From Escherichia coli (GTDB lineage: Bacteria; Pseudomonadota; Gammaproteobacteria; Enterobacterales; Enterobacteriaceae), in NCBI RefSeq assembly GCF_048403405.1, contig NZ_CP183129.1: DNA of 64,000 bases. One strand, 5' to 3'. Below are positions 12,517 to 48,646 of this stretch, piece after piece. Position numbers and translations under genes: made by a program. The number at the start of each line of letters is the position of its first letter. The first letter of the stretch is position 1. The notes below the pieces were generated by a model. The model saw only the letters and a program-made list of their open reading frames with translations. It had not been told where the DNA came from and searched no databases.

Positions 12517-12603
12517 CCCCTCTCCCTTGAGGGAGAGGGTTAGGGTGAGGGGGAAATGCGCACGCTGATGCCCTCACCCCGGCCCTCTCCCACAGGGAGA
12601 GGG
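12517..12603. repeat. GC-rich nested palindromic intergenic repeat (three hairpin modules)
   Basis: ccctctccc-ttga-gggagaggg (12518-12539), gggtgaggg...ccctcaccc (12543-12580), ccctctccc-aca-gggagaggg (12583-12603) read directly between phnD and phnE. Confidence 0.6.
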
Positions 12604-12627: not shown

Positions 12628-13407
12628 ATGCAAACCATCACCATCGCCCCACCCAAGCGCAGCTGGTTCTCGCTTCTGAGCTGGGCCATTGTACTCGCCG
12701 TGCTGGTCGTCTCGTGGCAGGGCGCGGAAATGGCCCCGCTCACGCTGATCAAAGACGGCGGCAACATGGCAACCTTCGCCGCCGACTTCTTCCCGCCCGA
12801 TTTCAGCCAGTGGCAGGATTACCTCACCGAAATGGCCGTCACGCTGCAAATCGCCGTCTGGGGCACCGCGCTGGCGGTGGTTCTCTCCATCCCCTTTGGC
12901 CTGATGAGCGCCGAAAACCTGGTGCCGTGGTGGGTTTACCAACCCGTTCGCCGCCTGATGGACGCCTGCCGCGCCATTAACGAGATGGTCTTCGCCATGC
13001 TGTTCGTGGTCGCCGTCGGTCTCGGTCCGTTCGCTGGCGTACTGGCGCTGTTTATCCACACCACCGGCGTGCTCTCCAAACTGCTTTCCGAAGCGGTAGA
13101 AGCAATTGAACCCGGCCCGGTGGAAGGTATTCGCGCCACCGGTGCCAACAAGCTGGAAGAGATTCTCTACGGCGTGCTGCCACAGGTGATGCCGCTGCTG
13201 ATCTCCTACTCCCTCTATCGCTTCGAATCCAACGTCCGCTCGGCGACCGTCGTCGGCATGGTCGGCGCGGGCGGGATCGGCGTCACCCTGTGGGAAGCGA
13301 TTCGCGGTTTCCAGTTCCAGCAAACCTGCGCCCTGATGGTGCTGATTATCGTCACGGTCAGCCTGCTGGATTTCCTCTCTCAACGGTTGCGTAAGCACTT
13401 TATCTGA
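12628..13407 (+). CDS. phnE: phosphonate ABC transporter permease, apparently intact
   Basis: Uninterrupted 259-codon ORF with GGAG Shine-Dalgarno 8 nt upstream; polytopic membrane protein. Confidence 0.85.
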
Positions 13408-18635: not shown

Positions 18636-19768
18636 TTATCAATAACGTTAAGCTGGTGCTGGAAAACGAAGTGGTGCACGGTTCGCTGGAGATGCAGGAC
18701 GGTGAAATCCGCGCCTTTGCCGAAAGCCAGAGCCGCCTGCCGGACGCGATGGACGGCGAAGGTGGCTGGCTGCTGCCGGGGCTGATTGAGCTGCATACCG
18801 ATAATCTGGATAAATTCTTCACCCCGCGCCCGAAAGTTGACTGGCCCGCCCATTCAGCGATGAGCAGCCACGACGCGCTGATGGTGGCAAGCGGCATCAC
18901 CACCGTACTGGACGCCGTGGCGATTGGTGATGTGCGCGACGGCGGCGATCGGCTGGAGAATCTGGAGAAGATGATCAACGCCATCGAAGAGACGCAGAAA
19001 CGCGGCGTCAACCGCGCCGAGCACCGCCTGCACCTGCGCTGCGAACTGCCGCACCACACCACGTTGCCGCTGTTTGAAAAACTGGTGCAGCGCGAACCGG
19101 TGACGCTGGTATCGCTGATGGACCACTCGCCAGGCCAGCGCCAGTTCGCCAATCGCGAGAAGTATCGCGAATATTATCAGGGCAAATATTCCCTCACCGA
19201 TGCGCAGATGCAGCAGTACGAAGAAGAGCAATTGGCGCTCGCCGCACGCTGGTCGCAGCCAAATCGCGAAACCATCGCCGCAATGTGCCGCGCGCGACAC
19301 ATTGCGCTCGCCAGCCACGATGACGCCACGCACGCCCACGTTGCCGAATCCCACCAGCTTGGCAGCGTGATCGCCGAATTTCCCACCACGTTCGAAGCGG
19401 CAGAAGCCTCGCGCAAGCATGGCATGAACGTGCTGATGGGCGCGCCGAATATCGTGCGCGGCGGTTCGCACTCCGGCAACGTGGCGGCCAGTGAACTGGC
19501 GCAGCTTGGCCTGCTGGATATCCTCTCTTCCGACTACTACCCCGCCAGCCTGCTCGATGCGGCATTTCGCGTCGCCGATGACGAGAGCAACCGCTTTACG
19601 CTGCCGCAGGCGGTGAAGTTGGTGACCAAAAATCCGGCGCAGGCGCTTAATCTCCAGGATCGCGGGGTGATTGGCGAGGGCAAACGCGCCGACCTGGTGC
19701 TGGCGCATCGCAAGGGCAATCACATTCATATCGACCACGTCTGGCGTCAGGGTAAAAGGGTGTTCTGA
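18632..19768 (+). CDS. phnM: amidohydrolase-family C-P lyase pathway enzyme
   Basis: 378 aa; ATGA overlap with phnL. Confidence 0.9.
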
Positions 19769-20325
19769 TGACGGGAAAACTGATTTGGTTAATGGGGGCC
19801 TCTGGCTCCGGAAAAGACAGTCTGTTGACGGAACTCCGCCAGCGGGAACAAACTCAGCTACTGGTAGCGCATCGCTACATCACGCGCGCCGCCAGCGCCG
19901 GAAGTGAAAACCATATCGCCCTGAGCGAGCAGGAGTTTTTTACCCGCGCGGGGCAAAATCTGCTGGCCTTAAGCTGGCACGCTAACGGCCTGTATTATGG
20001 CGTCGGCGTCGAGATTGACCTCTGGCTGCACGCTGGATTTGACGTGATGGTCAACGGCTCACGCGCCCATCTGCCGCAGGCGCGGGCGCGCTATCAATCG
20101 GCGCTGCTGCCCGTTTGTTTACAGGTTTCGCCGGAGATCCTGCGCCAGCGCCTCGAAAACCGTGGTCGTGAAAATGCCAGTGAAATTAACGCCCGACTGG
20201 CACGCGCTGCCCGCTATACTCCTCAGGATTGTCTTACGCTCAATAATGACGGCAGCCTGCGCCAGTCGGTCGACAAGCTGCTGACGCTGATTCATCAGAA
20301 GGAGAAACACCATGCCTGCTTGTGA
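19768..20325 (+). CDS. phnN: ribose 1,5-bisphosphate phosphokinase
   Basis: 185 aa; P-loop GASGSGKDS; start overlaps phnM stop. Confidence 0.9.
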
Positions 20326-20746
20326 GCTTCGCCCGGCTACGCAGTACGACATCGACGCAGTTTACGCGCTGATTTGTGAGCTAAAACAGGCGGAGTTTGA
20401 CCACCACGCGTTTCGCGTGGGGTTTAACGCCAATCTGCGCGACCCGAACATGCGCTACCATTTGGCGCTGCTGGATGGCGAGGTTGTCGGCATGATCGGT
20501 CTGCATTTGCAGTTTCATCTGCATCATGTCAACTGGATCGGCGAAATTCAGGAACTGGTGGTGATGCCGCAGGCGCGCGGTCTGAACGTCGGTAGTAAAT
20601 TACTGGCATGGGCAGAAGAAGAAGCCCGCCAGGCCGGGGCAGAAATGACCGAGCTTTCCACCAACGTCAAGCGCCACGACGCGCACCGTTTCTATCTGCG
20701 CGAAGGCTATGAGCAGAGCCACTTCCGCTTCACCAAGGCGCTGTAA
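20312..20746 (+). CDS. phnO: GNAT-family aminoalkylphosphonate N-acetyltransferase
   Basis: 144 aa; 14-nt overlap with phnN. Confidence 0.88.
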
Positions 20747-20747
20747 C

Positions 20748-21506
20748 ATGAGCCTGACCCTCACACTTACTGGCACTGGCGGCGCACAGGGCGTTCCCGC
20801 ATGGGGCTGTGAGTGCGCGGCCTGCGCCAGAGCGCGGCGCTCATCGCAGTATCGCCGCCAGCCATGCAGCGGCGTCGTGAAGTTTAACGACGCGATCACC
20901 CTGATCGACGCCGGGCTGCACGATCTCGCCGATCGCTGGTCGCCCGGATCGTTCCAGCAGTTTTTGCTGACGCACTACCATATGGATCACGTGCAGGGGC
21001 TGTTTCCGCTGCGCTGGGGCGTGGGCGATTCGATCCCGATCTACGGCCCGCCGGATGAACAGGGCTGCGACGATCTGTTTAAACATCCGGGCCTGCTTGA
21101 TTTCAGCCACACGATGGAACCGTTTGTGGTGTTTGATTTACAGGGGTTACAGGTCACGCCCCTGCCGCTCAACCACTCAAAACTGACCTTCGGTTATCTG
21201 CTGGAAACGGCACACAGCCTGGTGGCGTGGCTGTCTGACACCGCTGGCTTGCCGGAAAAAACGCTGAAATTTTTACGCAATAATCAGCCGCAGGTAATGG
21301 TGATTGATTGCAGCCATCCGCCGCGTGCGGATGCGCCGCGTAATCACTGTGATTTAAACACCGTGCTGGCGCTGAATGAGGTTATCCGCTCGCCACGGGT
21401 GATTCTGACGCATATCAGCCACCAGTTTGATGCGTGGCTGATGGAAAACGCACTGCCGTCGGGGTTTGAGGCGGGGTTTGATGGGATGGAGATTGGGGTG
21501 GCGTGA
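20748..21506 (+). CDS. phnP: metallo-beta-lactamase-fold phosphodiesterase
   Basis: ORF 20709-21506 trimmed to ATG 20748 ([12 protein letters not shown]...), 252 aa; HxHxDH motif (THYHMDH). Confidence 0.9.
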
Positions 21507-21560
21507 TGGGATGGAGATTGGGGTGGCGTGATGGGATGGAGATTGGGGTGGCGTGATGGG
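21480..21560. repeat. tandem direct repeat, 25-bp unit gatgggatggagattggggtggcgt x3 plus a partial copy
   Basis: Units at 21480-21504, 21505-21529, 21530-21554 are identical; the first unit encodes the last phnP codons and the stop TGA 21504-21506. Confidence 0.9.
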
Positions 21561-21597
21561 GAGAATGTGCTCGCTGGCCCCCTCACCCGAGCCTACC

Positions 21598-21927
21598 TCA
21601 TCGCCCATACTCATCTTCCATTCTCCGCTCTTCATCCTCCAGTTGCCGACGCTCCTGATCAAGCTGGCGCTGGCGATCGTCCAGCTGCCTGCGGCGATCT
21701 TCAAACTGGCGGCGGCGGTCGTCATATTGTCTGCGCCGATCGTCGCTCACTTCACGCTGCCAGCCGTCGTCGTGCGAATCTTCATAGTCTCGCCCACGGT
21801 CAGGGTTATAAGCATCGTTAATCGCCTGCTGAATATTGCCAATGGTGTCGTCGATAATATCGGCCTGGGCCGGAACGGTGGACAGCGTGAGCAGGGTGAA
21901 TAAAAGAAATAGCGGAAAGCGTTTCAT
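21598..21927 (-). CDS. yjdP: secreted low-complexity protein with charged DDRRRQ-type repeats
   Basis: 109 aa; N-terminal signal peptide followed by RRRQ/DDRRRQ repeats; convergent with phnP. Confidence 0.8.
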   Translation of the reverse strand: MKRFPLFLLFTLLTLSTVPAQADIIDDTIGNIQQAINDAYNPDRGRDYEDSHDDGWQREVSDDRRRQYDDRRRQFEDRRRQLDDRQRQLDQERRQLEDEERRMEDEYGR

Positions 21928-21995
21928 TAGCCAACCTCAAAAAGAAACTCTATCCACATTAGTCATTACTCATCCATGCAAGTAGTGGATGAATC

Positions 21996-22313
21996 TCAAT
22001 TTCTCCGCTGCTCTATTGCCGTAATCGCCTCCACGTGTTGTTGATGACGACCGCCTTCGTACTGCGCGCCCAGCCACGCATCCACAATCATTTTTGCCAG
22101 TTCGAGGCCAACCACTCGTGAACCAAAAGCCAGTGCAACTTCACTGGCATAATGCGGATAATCAGTGCGCTCTGACGACCTGGTGTCTTTATCAATCACC
22201 TCACTCATTGACCATGAATAAAAGGCTGGCACAGCAACGCAGAATCCTGCGGTGCCAGCGACATGACCGCCCATTGCTCCGGTACGTTTTTTAATAAAAA
22301 ACACCGGTTGCAT
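21996..22313 (-). pseudogene. rpiB: degraded ribose-5-phosphate isomerase B remnant
   Basis: Translation ends ...FGSRVVGLELAKMIVDAWLGAQYEGGRHQQHVEAITAIEQRRN, matching the RpiB C-terminus as I recall it, and contains SERTDYPHYAS; about 52 internal residues including the ICGTG active-site Cys region are missing and the N-terminal GCDHVG motif reads GGHVAG. Confidence 0.6.
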
Positions 22314-22565
22314 TGATTAATTGTGCTCAGTATTTGCCGAAGTACAATATATATAATAAATATATAAAACACCTCATATTATTTACAGAGATAATAAATT
22401 CGCGTAATTTTCCCTCTTCAGCACAAATGCCTAATAAAATGGCGCGTTCAGCTCACACTTCTACTTATTAAAGTCGCAATTTCCCAATTATGATAACGCC
22501 AGCTTTAAATGACGTATTTTGCATGGATTACATATTTACGACACAAATGATAAATGGAGATTTAT

Positions 22566-24551
22566 ATGAATAACTCTCGGTTATTCCGTTTGAGCAGGAT
22601 TGTTATTGCGTTAACTGCCGCCAGCGGCATGATGGTAAATACCGCTTACGCAACAGATGAAGCGAAAGCCGCCACTCAATATACCCAACAGATTAATCAG
22701 AATTACGCCAAATCATTACCGTTTAGCGATCGTCAGGATTTTGACGATGCCCAGCGTGGATTTATCGCCCCGCTGCTGGATGAAGGTATTCTGCGTGATG
22801 CTAACGGTAAAGTTTACTACCGCGCAGACGATTACAAATTTGATATTAATGCCGCTGCGCCGGAAACCGTAAACCCCAGCCTGTGGCGTCAGTCGCAAAT
22901 CAACGGTATTTCTGGCCTGTTCAAAGTCACCGATAAAATGTATCAGGTGCGCGGCCAGGATATCTCTAACATTACGTTCGTTGAGGGCGAGAAAGGCATT
23001 ATTGTTATCGACCCACTGGTGACGCCGCCTACCGCAAAAGCCGCACTTGATCTTTACTTCCAGCATCGTCCGCAAAAACCGATTGTTGCTGTGATTTACA
23101 CCCACAGCCACGCCGACCATTATGGCGGTGTGAAAGGCATTATCTCTGAAGCCGATGTTAAATCCGGCAAAGTTCAGGTGATTGCTCCAGCTGGCTTTAT
23201 GGACGAAGCCATCAGCGAAAACGTGCTGGCGGGTAACATCATGAGCCGCCGTGCGCTCTACTCTTACGGTCTGTTACTGCCGCACAACGCGCAAGGCAAC
23301 GTGGGCAACGGCCTTGGCGTGACGCTGGCAACGGGCGACCCGAGCATTATTGCACCGACTAAAACTATCGTCAGAACTGGCGAGAAGATGATTATCGACG
23401 GCCTGGAGTTTGACTTCCTGATGACCCCAGGTAGCGAAGCGCCAGCCGAAATGCACTTCTATATTCCGGCCCTGAAAGCCCTGTGTACCGCCGAGAACGC
23501 CACGCATACCCTGCACAACTTCTACACTCTGCGCGGCGCGAAAACCCGCGATACCAGCAAGTGGACCGAGTACCTGAACGAAACGCTGGATATGTGGGGT
23601 AACGACGCGGAAGTACTGTTTATGCCGCACACCTGGCCGGTCTGGGGCAATAAGCATATCAATGATTATATTGGTAAATATCGCGATACTATCAAGTACA
23701 TTCACGACCAGACCCTGCACCTGGCGAACCAGGGCTACACCATGAATGAAATCGGCGACATGATTAAGCTGCCGCCTGCGCTTGCCAATAATTGGGCCAG
23801 CCGCGGCTATTACGGTTCTGTCAGCCACAACGCCCGCGCGGTATATAACTTCTATCTTGGCTATTACGACGGTAACCCGGCTAACCTGCATCCCTATGGT
23901 CAGGTGGAGATGGGTAAACGTTACGTGCAGGCGCTGGGCGGTTCTGCCCGTGTCATCAACCTGGCGCAAGAAGCGAACAAGCAAGGTGATTACCGTTGGT
24001 CGGCAGAACTGCTGAAACAGGTGATTGCCGCCAACCCAGGTGACCAGGTCGCGAAGAATCTGCAAGCGAATAACTTTGAACAGCTGGGCTATCAGGCCGA
24101 GTCCGCCACCTGGCGCGGTTTCTACCTGACCGGCGCGAAAGAGCTGCGCGAAGGGGTACATAAGTTCAGCCACAGCTCCACCGGTTCCCCGGACACCCTT
24201 CGCGGGATGTCGGTCGAAATGCTATTCGACTTTATGGCCGTTCGCCTCGATAGCGCGAAAGCCGCAGGTAAGAATATCAGCCTGAACTTCAATATGAGCA
24301 ACGGCGATAACCTCAACCTGACGCTGAACGATAGCGTGCTTAACTACCGTAAAACGCTGCAACCTGAAGCCAACGCCTCTTTCTACATCAGCCGTGAAGA
24401 TCTTCACGCCGTGCTGACCGGACAAGCCAAAATGGCGGATCTGGTAAAAGCGAAGAAAGCCAAAATTATTGGCAATGGTGCGAAACTGGAAGAAATTATT
24501 GCCTGTCTGGATAATTTCGATTTGTGGGTGAATATCGTAACCCCAAATTAA
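22566..24551 (+). CDS. yjcS: alkyl/aryl-sulfatase-like metallo-beta-lactamase-fold protein, secreted
   Basis: ORF trimmed to ATG 22566 (GGAG 8 nt upstream), 661 aa; signal peptide; HxHxDH motif YTHSHADH. Confidence 0.85.
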
Positions 24552-46996: not shown

Positions 46997-48646
46997 TTAC
47001 TGATTTTCCTCAATCAACAACGCTTCAAGCAAATCGAGATCGTGCAGTAATTTTTGCAGCGTTTCGTTGCTGATCTCCCGCGTGGCGCGCAGGTGGTACA
47101 GTTCAGCACGTTCAGAACGCAATGCCGCCAGACGGAAGCGACGCTCAAGGTTCTCTTCCTGCACGGAACTTTCAACGTCGTTACGTCCATCGGCGCGACG
47201 ACGCAGGTTACCAATGACGCGAGAACTGACCTCCGTGAGCAGCTGGTTATCGATATTCTCTTCGGTATCCGCCGCCAGACGCTCCTCCATTTTCTGGATC
47301 GCCACAATCGCCACTTCTGCCGTTGCCGCTCGCGCAATACGTTCCTCTTTCAATTGTTGCGAATGGTCCGCGACTTCAATGTGTTGTAGCAGAATAGGCA
47401 ACATCACCACGCCGACAAACAACGAGAAGAGAATGACACCAGCCGCCAGGAATACCAGCTCATAGCGCGCCGGGAAGACGTTACCATCCGGCAAGAGCAG
47501 CGGGATAGAGAGCACACCAGCCAGAGTGATCGCCCCACGCACCCCGGCGAAAGACGCGATCAGGATTTCTCGTGTGGTCCACGAACCAAACTCCATCGGC
47601 TTCTTCTTCAGGAAGCGGTTGCTGAACTTTTTCATCGTCCACAGCCAGCCGAAACGGACCAGCATCAGCGCCGCATAAATCAGAATGATATCGGTAAACA
47701 GCATCCAGATTTCGACGTTAGGGTCGATTTCTGCCGCCATCAGCGACGTCTCCAGAATACCCGGCAGCTGCAGACCTAACAGCAGGAACACCATACCGTT
47801 AAAGACAAATTCCAGCATCGCCCAGGTGCTGTTTGCGCGCAGGCGCATTGCCAGCGGCGCACGGCGCATCACACCGGAGCGGGTGATGGTCATCCCGGCG
47901 GCAACCGCAGCGAGGATGCCGGAAACGCCAATATGTTCGGCAATCAGATAAGAAGCGAATGGCAGCAAGAACAGTAGAACAATCTGCGTCGCAGGTTCAT
48001 CACCGCCCCAGCGGCTGAGGAATCGCAGCGAGCGACCATACAGCCAGCTCACTACAAAACCGGCGAGAATACCGCCAATGGCCACTTTCATAAATTCGAC
48101 CGTTGCACCGCCGACGGTGAAGATCATCGTCCCCATCGCCACTGCTACGGCAAACTTCAACGACACCAGGCCAGAGGCGTCATTCATCAACGCTTCGCCC
48201 TGCAAAATGCCCATGATTTTTTTCGGGATGCGCCCTTCGCCAACAATCCCGGAGAGCGCCACAGCATCGGTCGGAGAAAGCACCGCCGCCAGCGCAAAGG
48301 CGGGGATCAGCGGAATGCCCGGCACCACCCAGTAAATAAGGAAGCCAATGCCGACCACGGTGACCACCACCAGCGCCAGCGCGAGGCCGAAAATCTCTCG
48401 ACCATGTTCGAGAAATTCACGGGTCGGCGTTTTCCAGCCATCAGCGAACAGCAACGGCGGGATAAACAAGACTAAAAAGAGTTCAGGATCAAACTCCACA
48501 TGCAAACCAAACGTCGGCCACGCCAGTAGCGCACCGATGGCGATTTGCATAAGCGGAAGCGGGATCTGAAAGGGCATGACACGAGTGACCACCCCGGACA
48601 GCGAGACCACGAGGGTCATTATCAGTATGGTGAAGAAGATTTCCAT
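46997..48646 (-). CDS. yjcE: Na+/H+ exchanger (CPA1 family)
   Basis: 549 aa polytopic membrane protein. Confidence 0.85.
   Translation of the reverse strand: MEIFFTILIMTLVVSLSGVVTRVMPFQIPLPLMQIAIGALLAWPTFGLHVEFDPELFLVLFIPPLLFADGWKTPTREFLEHGREIFGLALALVVVTVVGIGFLIYWVVPGIPLIPAFALAAVLSPTDAVALSGIVGEGRIPKKIMGILQGEALMNDASGLVSLKFAVAVAMGTMIFTVGGATVEFMKVAIGGILAGFVVSWLYGRSLRFLSRWGGDEPATQIVLLFLLPFASYLIAEHIGVSGILAAVAAGMTITRSGVMRRAPLAMRLRANSTWAMLEFVFNGMVFLLLGLQLPGILETSLMAAEIDPNVEIWMLFTDIILIYAALMLVRFGWLWTMKKFSNRFLKKKPMEFGSWTTREILIASFAGVRGAITLAGVLSIPLLLPDGNVFPARYELVFLAAGVILFSLFVGVVMLPILLQHIEVADHSQQLKEERIARAATAEVAIVAIQKMEERLAADTEENIDNQLLTEVSSRVIGNLRRRADGRNDVESSVQEENLERRFRLAALRSERAELYHLRATREISNETLQKLLHDLDLLEALLIEENQ

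Follow-up and report, generated by a model that had tools for sequence, protein, structure and literature searches.

A 25-bp tandem repeat of variable copy number at the phnP stop codon of Escherichia coli

Introduction

How does a perfect tandem repeat come to lie across the stop codon of a gene, and does a change in its copy number matter to the protein or to the RNA made there? This question is raised by the 3′ end of phnP in a strain of Escherichia coli, where a 25-bp unit is repeated without a mismatch at the junction with yjdP. The original prediction, made from the letters of the window (the 64,000-nucleotide stretch of E. coli DNA analyzed here), held that the array had expanded recently, that it varies among strains, and that copy-number change by slipped-strand mispairing could alter the PhnP C-terminus. 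The array is real, a rare tandem repeat of a well-known kind that expanded recently and continues to change. It is very probably a lineage-restricted VNTR with a 25-bp unit in one, two or three copies, made and resized by replication slippage, with its added copies 3′ of the stop codon and most likely neutral.

Structure of the array and its gene setting

The phnP gene is the last of the phnC-P operon, and its product aligns over residues 1–252 with the PDB entry 3g1p, "Protein phnP" (E = 1.5e-174); the K-12 protein has the same C-terminus. Downstream lies yjdP on the opposite strand, and the convergent arrangement of the two genes that had been described for this junction is therefore confirmed. 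The features of the locus are as follows.

20748–21506, plus strand: phnP, 252 codons and a TGA stop (open reading frame list, alignment with PDB 3g1p and RefSeq annotation of an identical sequence)
21461–21484, plus strand: imperfect 12-bp in-frame repeat, GGGGTTTGAGGC / GGGGTTTGATGG, encoding GFEA/GFDG (sequence and repeat-family analysis)
21479–21503, plus strand: unit 1 of the 25-bp repeat, encoding the last eight phnP codons (DGMEIGVA)
21504–21528, plus strand: unit 2, of which the first three bases, TGA (21504–21506), are the phnP stop and the remainder is non-coding
21529–21553, plus strand: unit 3, non-coding, missing from two-copy alleles
21554–21560, plus strand: partial unit TGATGGG, 7 nt, the downstream copy of the ancestral 7-bp direct repeat
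21561–21597, no strand assigned: rest of the phnP-yjdP spacer, a remnant (…GCTGGCCCCCTCACCC…) of a GC-rich element
21598–21927, minus strand: yjdP, encoding a 109-aa DDRRRQL-repeat protein with a signal peptide (open reading frame list, RefSeq annotation and Pfam PF28054 YjdP)

TRF places the array at 21479–21560, with a period of 25, 3.3 copies, 100% matches and a score of 164, which is the highest of any array in the 64-kb window; the runner-up, with a score of 76, is a coding repeat within yjdP. The exact unit TGATGGGATGGAGATTGGGGTGGCG starts at 21479, 21504 and 21529, and the units follow one another head-to-tail with no spacers between them. These results bear out the description of three identical 25-bp units and a partial fourth. 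The span first given for the array, 21460–21562, stands less well, as it began 19 nt too early. The 19 nt wrongly included upstream belong to the imperfect 12-bp repeat at 21461–21484, a separate slippage-prone motif that sits inside phnP and overlaps the start of unit 1. A search of the 64-kb window for further copies of TGATGGGATGGAGATTGGGGTGGCG, with up to three mismatches allowed, returned no other match, and none was expected from 100 shuffles. A CRISPR array was considered and rejected, since the repeat spacing equals the unit length and leaves no unique spacers.

Unit 1 encodes the terminal phnP codons, as had been stated, and it is the sole unit in nearly all E. coli. The stop codon had been assigned to the same unit, and this part of the description requires correction, as the stop TGA is itself the first triplet of unit 2.

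Several features of the surrounding DNA may be recorded here in their own right. Within yjdP, a diverged 21-bp coding tandem repeat (21672–21744; 3.5 copies, 75% identity) encodes DDRRRQ(L/F/Y) heptads, and in strain PEC1003 yjdP is annotated with an internal stop. Beside yjdP lies an open reading frame of 105 aa annotated as "RpiB/LacA/LacB family" (21996–22313, minus strand), which is an rpiB remnant: relative to the 149-aa RpiB of K-12-like strains it lacks 53 internal residues and its N-terminus differs, and yjcS is directly next to it. Consequently, the rpiB/als neighbourhood of K-12-type loci is missing from the lineage of the window.

Distribution of copy-number alleles

Copy number was compared across 5,426 complete E. 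coli genomes. A flanked 381-bp query matched 5,404 of them, with locus spans of 317–448 bp, and this variation in span stems from the spacer 3′ of the unit, which measures 27–158 bp. Tandem units were sought with junction queries composed of a flank of 60 or 200 nt, two units and TGATGGG, for which full coverage is impossible in a single-copy genome; these matched 4,980 and 5,357 of the 5,426 genomes. The unit-unit junction is present in only six, each of which has exactly three units and is identical to the window over 381 of 381 positions, and nearly all of the 5,426 genomes have one unit. Of the six, two are from Japan, three from the USA and one from Spain. They are closely clonal, with no more than 2 mismatches in 24 kb, and the best match outside the group reaches 98.4% identity. 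A look-up of YjdP added the GenBank record CP088348.1, a complete genome of unrecorded source that also has three copies and brings their number to seven.

A two-copy allele was retrieved by an exact look-up of the PhnP protein from at least two GenBank assemblies, GCA_045618685.1 and GCA_974496725.1, and from none of the RefSeq complete genomes. In the assembly collection, 575 blocks index this PhnP allele; the 24 longest contigs were read, two of them as DNA, so the two-copy count is a lower bound. Both records are WGS-level assemblies, read here as assembled sequence. Over 20.8 kb, GCA_045618685.1 and the window are separated by 2 SNPs and a single clean gap of 25 bp, which makes this genome a member of the three-copy clone; at the locus itself it differs only by the gap, which corresponds to unit 3. 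GCA_974496725.1 diverges from the window by about 2% in the phn operon and in the DNA downstream of it, yet it is identical to the window for about 4 kb (about 19000–23000) around phnN-phnP-yjdP. This pattern marks the genome as a mosaic, in which the expanded allele resides on a recombinant or shared tract between two lineages. Between two- and three-copy alleles, the flanks show either no difference or 2 mismatches in 3.7 kb.

An allele of the progenitor type, with a single unit in the same context, is found in strain 06-00048, which carries the spacer of the window with one unit only, arranged as TGATGGG-ATGGAGATTGGGGTGGCG-TGATGGG-GAGAATG with 18 nt between the heptamers. The wider flanks of this strain differ from the window by 42 and 63 mismatches in 3.3 kb, which places it outside the three-copy clone. 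Alleles with one, two and three units thus share an identical spacer, so that copy number varies while the flanks are kept. The comparison bears out a strain-variable locus; copy number is not fixed across E. coli, as alleles with one to three copies were seen. The proposal of recent expansion fares equally well, in that two or three copies occur on one shared haplotype, with perfectly identical units, and one copy elsewhere. The expanded alleles are limited to one clone and one recombinant, and account for about 0.1% of complete genomes.

Two scans of wider collections add little to this distribution. A metagenome scan for the unit-unit junction gave 0 matches, a weak negative, and a genome-collection scan with a 19-mer present in every examined E. 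coli phnP returned no Escherichia, only chance matches and Klebsiella indica. The latter scan missed E. coli itself, a failed positive control, and the negatives from both collection scans are therefore weak.

Direction of change within the clone

The position of the two-copy genome GCA_045618685.1 was probed by polarizing SNPs with outgroups. The derived SNP at 13025 (G>C) is found in GCA_045618685.1 and in the three-copy strains TUM14771 and GN02461, and the derived SNPs at 48635 (G>A) and 51874 (G>A) are common to GCA_045618685.1 and TUM14771 only. By these three derived SNPs, the two-copy genome and the three-copy TUM14771 are sisters and fall within the three-copy clone. By parsimony this nesting favors a contraction from three copies to two, which requires one step as compared to at least three for the alternative. 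The placement, which draws on one genome and three SNPs, implies that at least one loss of a unit has probably occurred. A whole-unit change is accordingly seen inside a clonal lineage, in this one genome, and with the contraction the array has both grown and shrunk. Slipped-strand mispairing, the process first proposed for the locus, fits the contraction that the phylogeny reveals in the clone; slippage as such is inferred from the alleles.

The same comparison drew attention to espX5 (45551–46843), which encodes a pentapeptide-repeat effector. Over 31 kb, TUM14771 and the window differ by five SNPs, two of which lie in this gene, at 46457 and 46661, within 205 bp of one another, and the EspX5 protein accession differs between TUM14771 and GN02461. 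This pair of SNPs may reflect a small recombination or a repeat-associated mutation cluster.

Origin of the array

The single unit is bracketed by a 7-bp direct repeat, TGATGGG, and the same is true in several other lineages. The second heptamer arises from the context of the stop codon, GCG-TGA-TGGG. Instead of TGATGGG, the sequence is TGATGAG in K-12 and O157 and TGAGGG in B2 strains, and phnP of Klebsiella indica has a TAA stop and is without the second heptamer. A first duplication would follow from mispairing between the two heptamers, which would copy the 25-bp segment and take the locus from one unit to two. The 32-nt homology made by that duplication would allow a further gain, from two units to three, and later the return from three to two.

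The separate 12-bp repeat has also expanded. Strains A37 and Q5 have three copies of GFEA, giving a 783-bp gene and a PhnP longer by 8 aa, and strain 700481 has a PhnP longer by 4 aa. These rare expansions do alter the PhnP C-terminus, unlike the 25-bp array. Their independent occurrence in other strains marks the G-rich 3′ end of phnP as prone to slippage.

Base composition and a possible role at the RNA level

The alternative that survives best holds that the array is a functional RNA element. In one form, copy number would set the termination of read-through from yjdP, which is antisense to phnP, in the manner of a rut site; in another, a G4-like 3′ end of the phn mRNA would affect its decay. 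The case for such an element begins with composition. With 14 G to a single C per unit, the array shows the strongest G/C skew of any 78-nt stretch in the window: G − C is 40–42, as compared to 30 both for the one-copy allele and for the most skewed stretch outside the array. The tract in which G exceeds C runs from 21450 to 21529 in the one-copy allele and from 21450 to 21579 in the window, a lengthening from about 80 to about 130 nt, and relaxed G4 motifs (loops ≤12) increase from 4 to 10. Of the 82 nt of the array read as minus-strand RNA, 46 are C and 3 are G, or about 56% and 4%, and the folding energy of this RNA is 0 kcal/mol. It therefore has, in composition only, the character of a rut site, that is, about 70–80 nt or more of C-rich, G-poor, unstructured RNA. 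Furthermore, neither promoter-like nor terminator-like sites were found in the spacer, whether of the window or of K-12, and the convergent junction is thus without a site resembling an intrinsic terminator.

However, other results speak against a functional element. Nearly all E. coli manage with one copy, the expanded allele is rare, and the loss of one copy has been tolerated. Other lineages fill the spacer with entirely different sequence, over lengths of 27–158 bp. A canonical G4 motif with loops of at most 7 is absent from the array, as are inverted repeats, and a search of Rfam gave no match at E ≤ 1. The plus-strand RNA of the array folds at −8.6 kcal/mol (z = −1.5), and the spacer gave z = +1.2 and +1.0, no better than shuffles. 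The original prediction had called for a check of RNA structure at this site, and none was found, with folding no better than in shuffled controls.

On balance, a functional RNA element is unlikely, and its most specific version, in which copy number tunes the loading of Rho and with it termination or antisense transcription at a junction lacking an intrinsic terminator, as a reversible "rut-length" dial, is slightly less likely again. Given the extreme skew, the array may nonetheless have an effect at the RNA level on 3′ end formation or antisense transcription. The absence of signals leads us to infer that the copy-number polymorphism is most likely neutral.

Reading frame and the PhnP C-terminus

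A unit whose length is not divisible by three, and whose copy number varies, could mark a contingency (phase-variable) locus, in which slippage would shift the phnP frame and give switchable PhnP C-termini. A slippage switch at an 8-bp repeat is documented for K-12 phnE, in the same operon (PMC6469041). The position of the stop codon argues otherwise. The stop falls at the first unit boundary, and the first in-frame TGA lies at the start of unit 2 or, in one-copy alleles, in the partial unit that supplies the stop. Consequently, whole-unit gains and losses are all 3′ of the stop, and for phnP it makes no difference that 25 cannot be divided by three. On the plus strand, all three frames meet a TGA of the 21504–21506 type within the array.

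Comparison of the proteins leads to the same result. The end position of phnP is the same in all eight length classes of the locus, and the PhnP accession WP_000059935.1 is common to the three-copy genomes. The two-copy loci were retrieved by an exact-sequence look-up of the 252-aa PhnP of the window, which means that two- and three-copy alleles encode the identical protein, and the C-terminal residues in single-copy strains are the same as in the window. The added copies leave PhnP unchanged and only put a further 25 or 50 bp between the convergent genes. The prediction that copy-number change could alter the PhnP C-terminus is thus not upheld, and a contingency locus acting through the phnP frame is refuted for whole-unit changes and very improbable overall. 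A phase-variable switch through promoter spacing was likewise rejected: the varying repeat is neither upstream of the phnP stop nor between promoter elements, no promoter-like site is present, and both genes end here.

Two small open reading frames were also considered as genes and rejected. One, of 16 codons, lies in the array and is opened by a TGATG stop/start overlap; the other, of 116 aa, is antisense to yjdP (21553–21903). In the K-12 spacer, the start equivalent to that of the TGATG-opened frame is followed by a stop after 37 codons. The closure of the K-12 frame, the different spacers of other lineages and the frequency with which open frames occur opposite low-complexity genes together account for the rejection.

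The last alternative, an assembly or sequencing artefact in the form of a collapsed or inflated repeat, has in its favor that tandem repeats are prone to mis-assembly and that the two-copy alleles come from WGS-level assemblies, but its probability is close to nil, as the 82-bp array is shorter than ordinary reads, the same 3.3-copy sequence is found in seven complete genomes (six RefSeq and one GenBank) from different laboratories and at least three countries, and two unrelated assemblies show the two-copy allele, in each case differing cleanly by one unit.

Comparison with known systems

VNTR, or minisatellite, loci serve in the MLVA typing of E. coli. The phnP array resembles these loci in its head-to-tail, perfect, short units, its intergenic position, its conserved flanks, its whole-unit alleles, and its history of both gain and loss. 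It differs from them in the narrow range of copy number (1–3), in its restriction to one clone and one recombinant, and in that the first unit is coding. Variation confined to about 0.1% of complete genomes gives the array little value for typing. In the literature searched, neither phnP nor yjdP is connected with a tandem repeat or VNTR.

The lacI CTGG hotspot is the classic case of slippage between short direct repeats, and short homologies of this kind give rise to deletions and duplications. The similarity to the phnP locus lies in the prior short direct repeat (7 bp, 25 bp apart), which sets the exact end points of the duplication, and in the longer homology that is present after duplication and favors further gain or loss. 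The event at phnP is read from natural alleles and not from a mutation assay.

The spacer also bears comparison with the HPG1 and HPG2 elements, which may correspond to the classical "box C". These are GC-rich G-quadruplex/hairpin elements, one of which lies between yjdP and phnP in K-12 (PMC5100583). The likeness is one of place and composition, as the elements occupy the same spacer in other strains, where the spacer is 27–158 bp long, and are rich in G-tracts. The 25-bp array differs in having neither dyad symmetry nor a canonical G4 motif, nor any dispersed copies in the 64-kb window searched. Membership of the array in the REP/BIME or HPG1/HPG2 families was accordingly rejected, there being no hairpin or inverted repeat and no dispersed copies of the unit in the 64 kb.

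Separately, a GC-rich element of the spacer, CCCTCACCCTAACCCTCTCCCC...GGGGCGAGGG, is variably present among E. coli lineages and is listed as an HPG1 motif in K-12 (PMC5100583). Its variable presence accounts for the range of spacer lengths, 27–158 bp, and in the lineage of the window it is reduced to a remnant. Motifs of the HPG1/HPG2 type were also observed as a head-to-head pair in the phnD-phnE spacer (12531–12551, minus strand, and 12571–12591, plus strand), where TRF flags 12528–12551. The phnD-phnE spacer is 65 bp shorter in strain 118UI, and the HPG-type element there appears to be variably present.

The closest parallel within the operon is the 8-bp repeat switch of K-12 phnE (Makino 1991 and Iqbal 2004, as cited in PMC6469041). 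There the repeat lies within the open reading frame, and the permease is switched off when a repeat is gained and on when it is lost (PMC6469041). The two loci share an operon, a presumed origin by slippage at a short direct repeat, and a unit not divisible by three. They differ in consequence, as variation of the phnP array is wholly beyond the stop codon and changes no protein. In the window, phnE (12628–13407) is intact and encodes 259 aa, with a single GCTGGCGT at site 13033 (position 406 of the open reading frame). Judged from its sequence, the window strain has a functional phnE allele and not the 8-bp insertion of K-12 that makes the phosphonate transporter cryptic.

Biological significance

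The biological weight of the array is small: it is a striking perfect repeat over a stop codon that has no effect on the protein. Were copy number to act as a dial on Rho loading, the locus would represent heritable, reversible tuning instead of a neutral polymorphism. As a lineage marker, the array identifies one clone of human-associated E. coli and a segment of about 4 kb that this clone shares with another lineage. The array and the independent 12-bp expansions, the latter adding 4 or 8 residues to PhnP, together show the G-rich 3′ end of the gene to be slippage-prone. The locus also shows cleanly, in natural alleles, how a 7-bp direct repeat that lies by chance at a stop codon can seed a tandem array that grows and shrinks.
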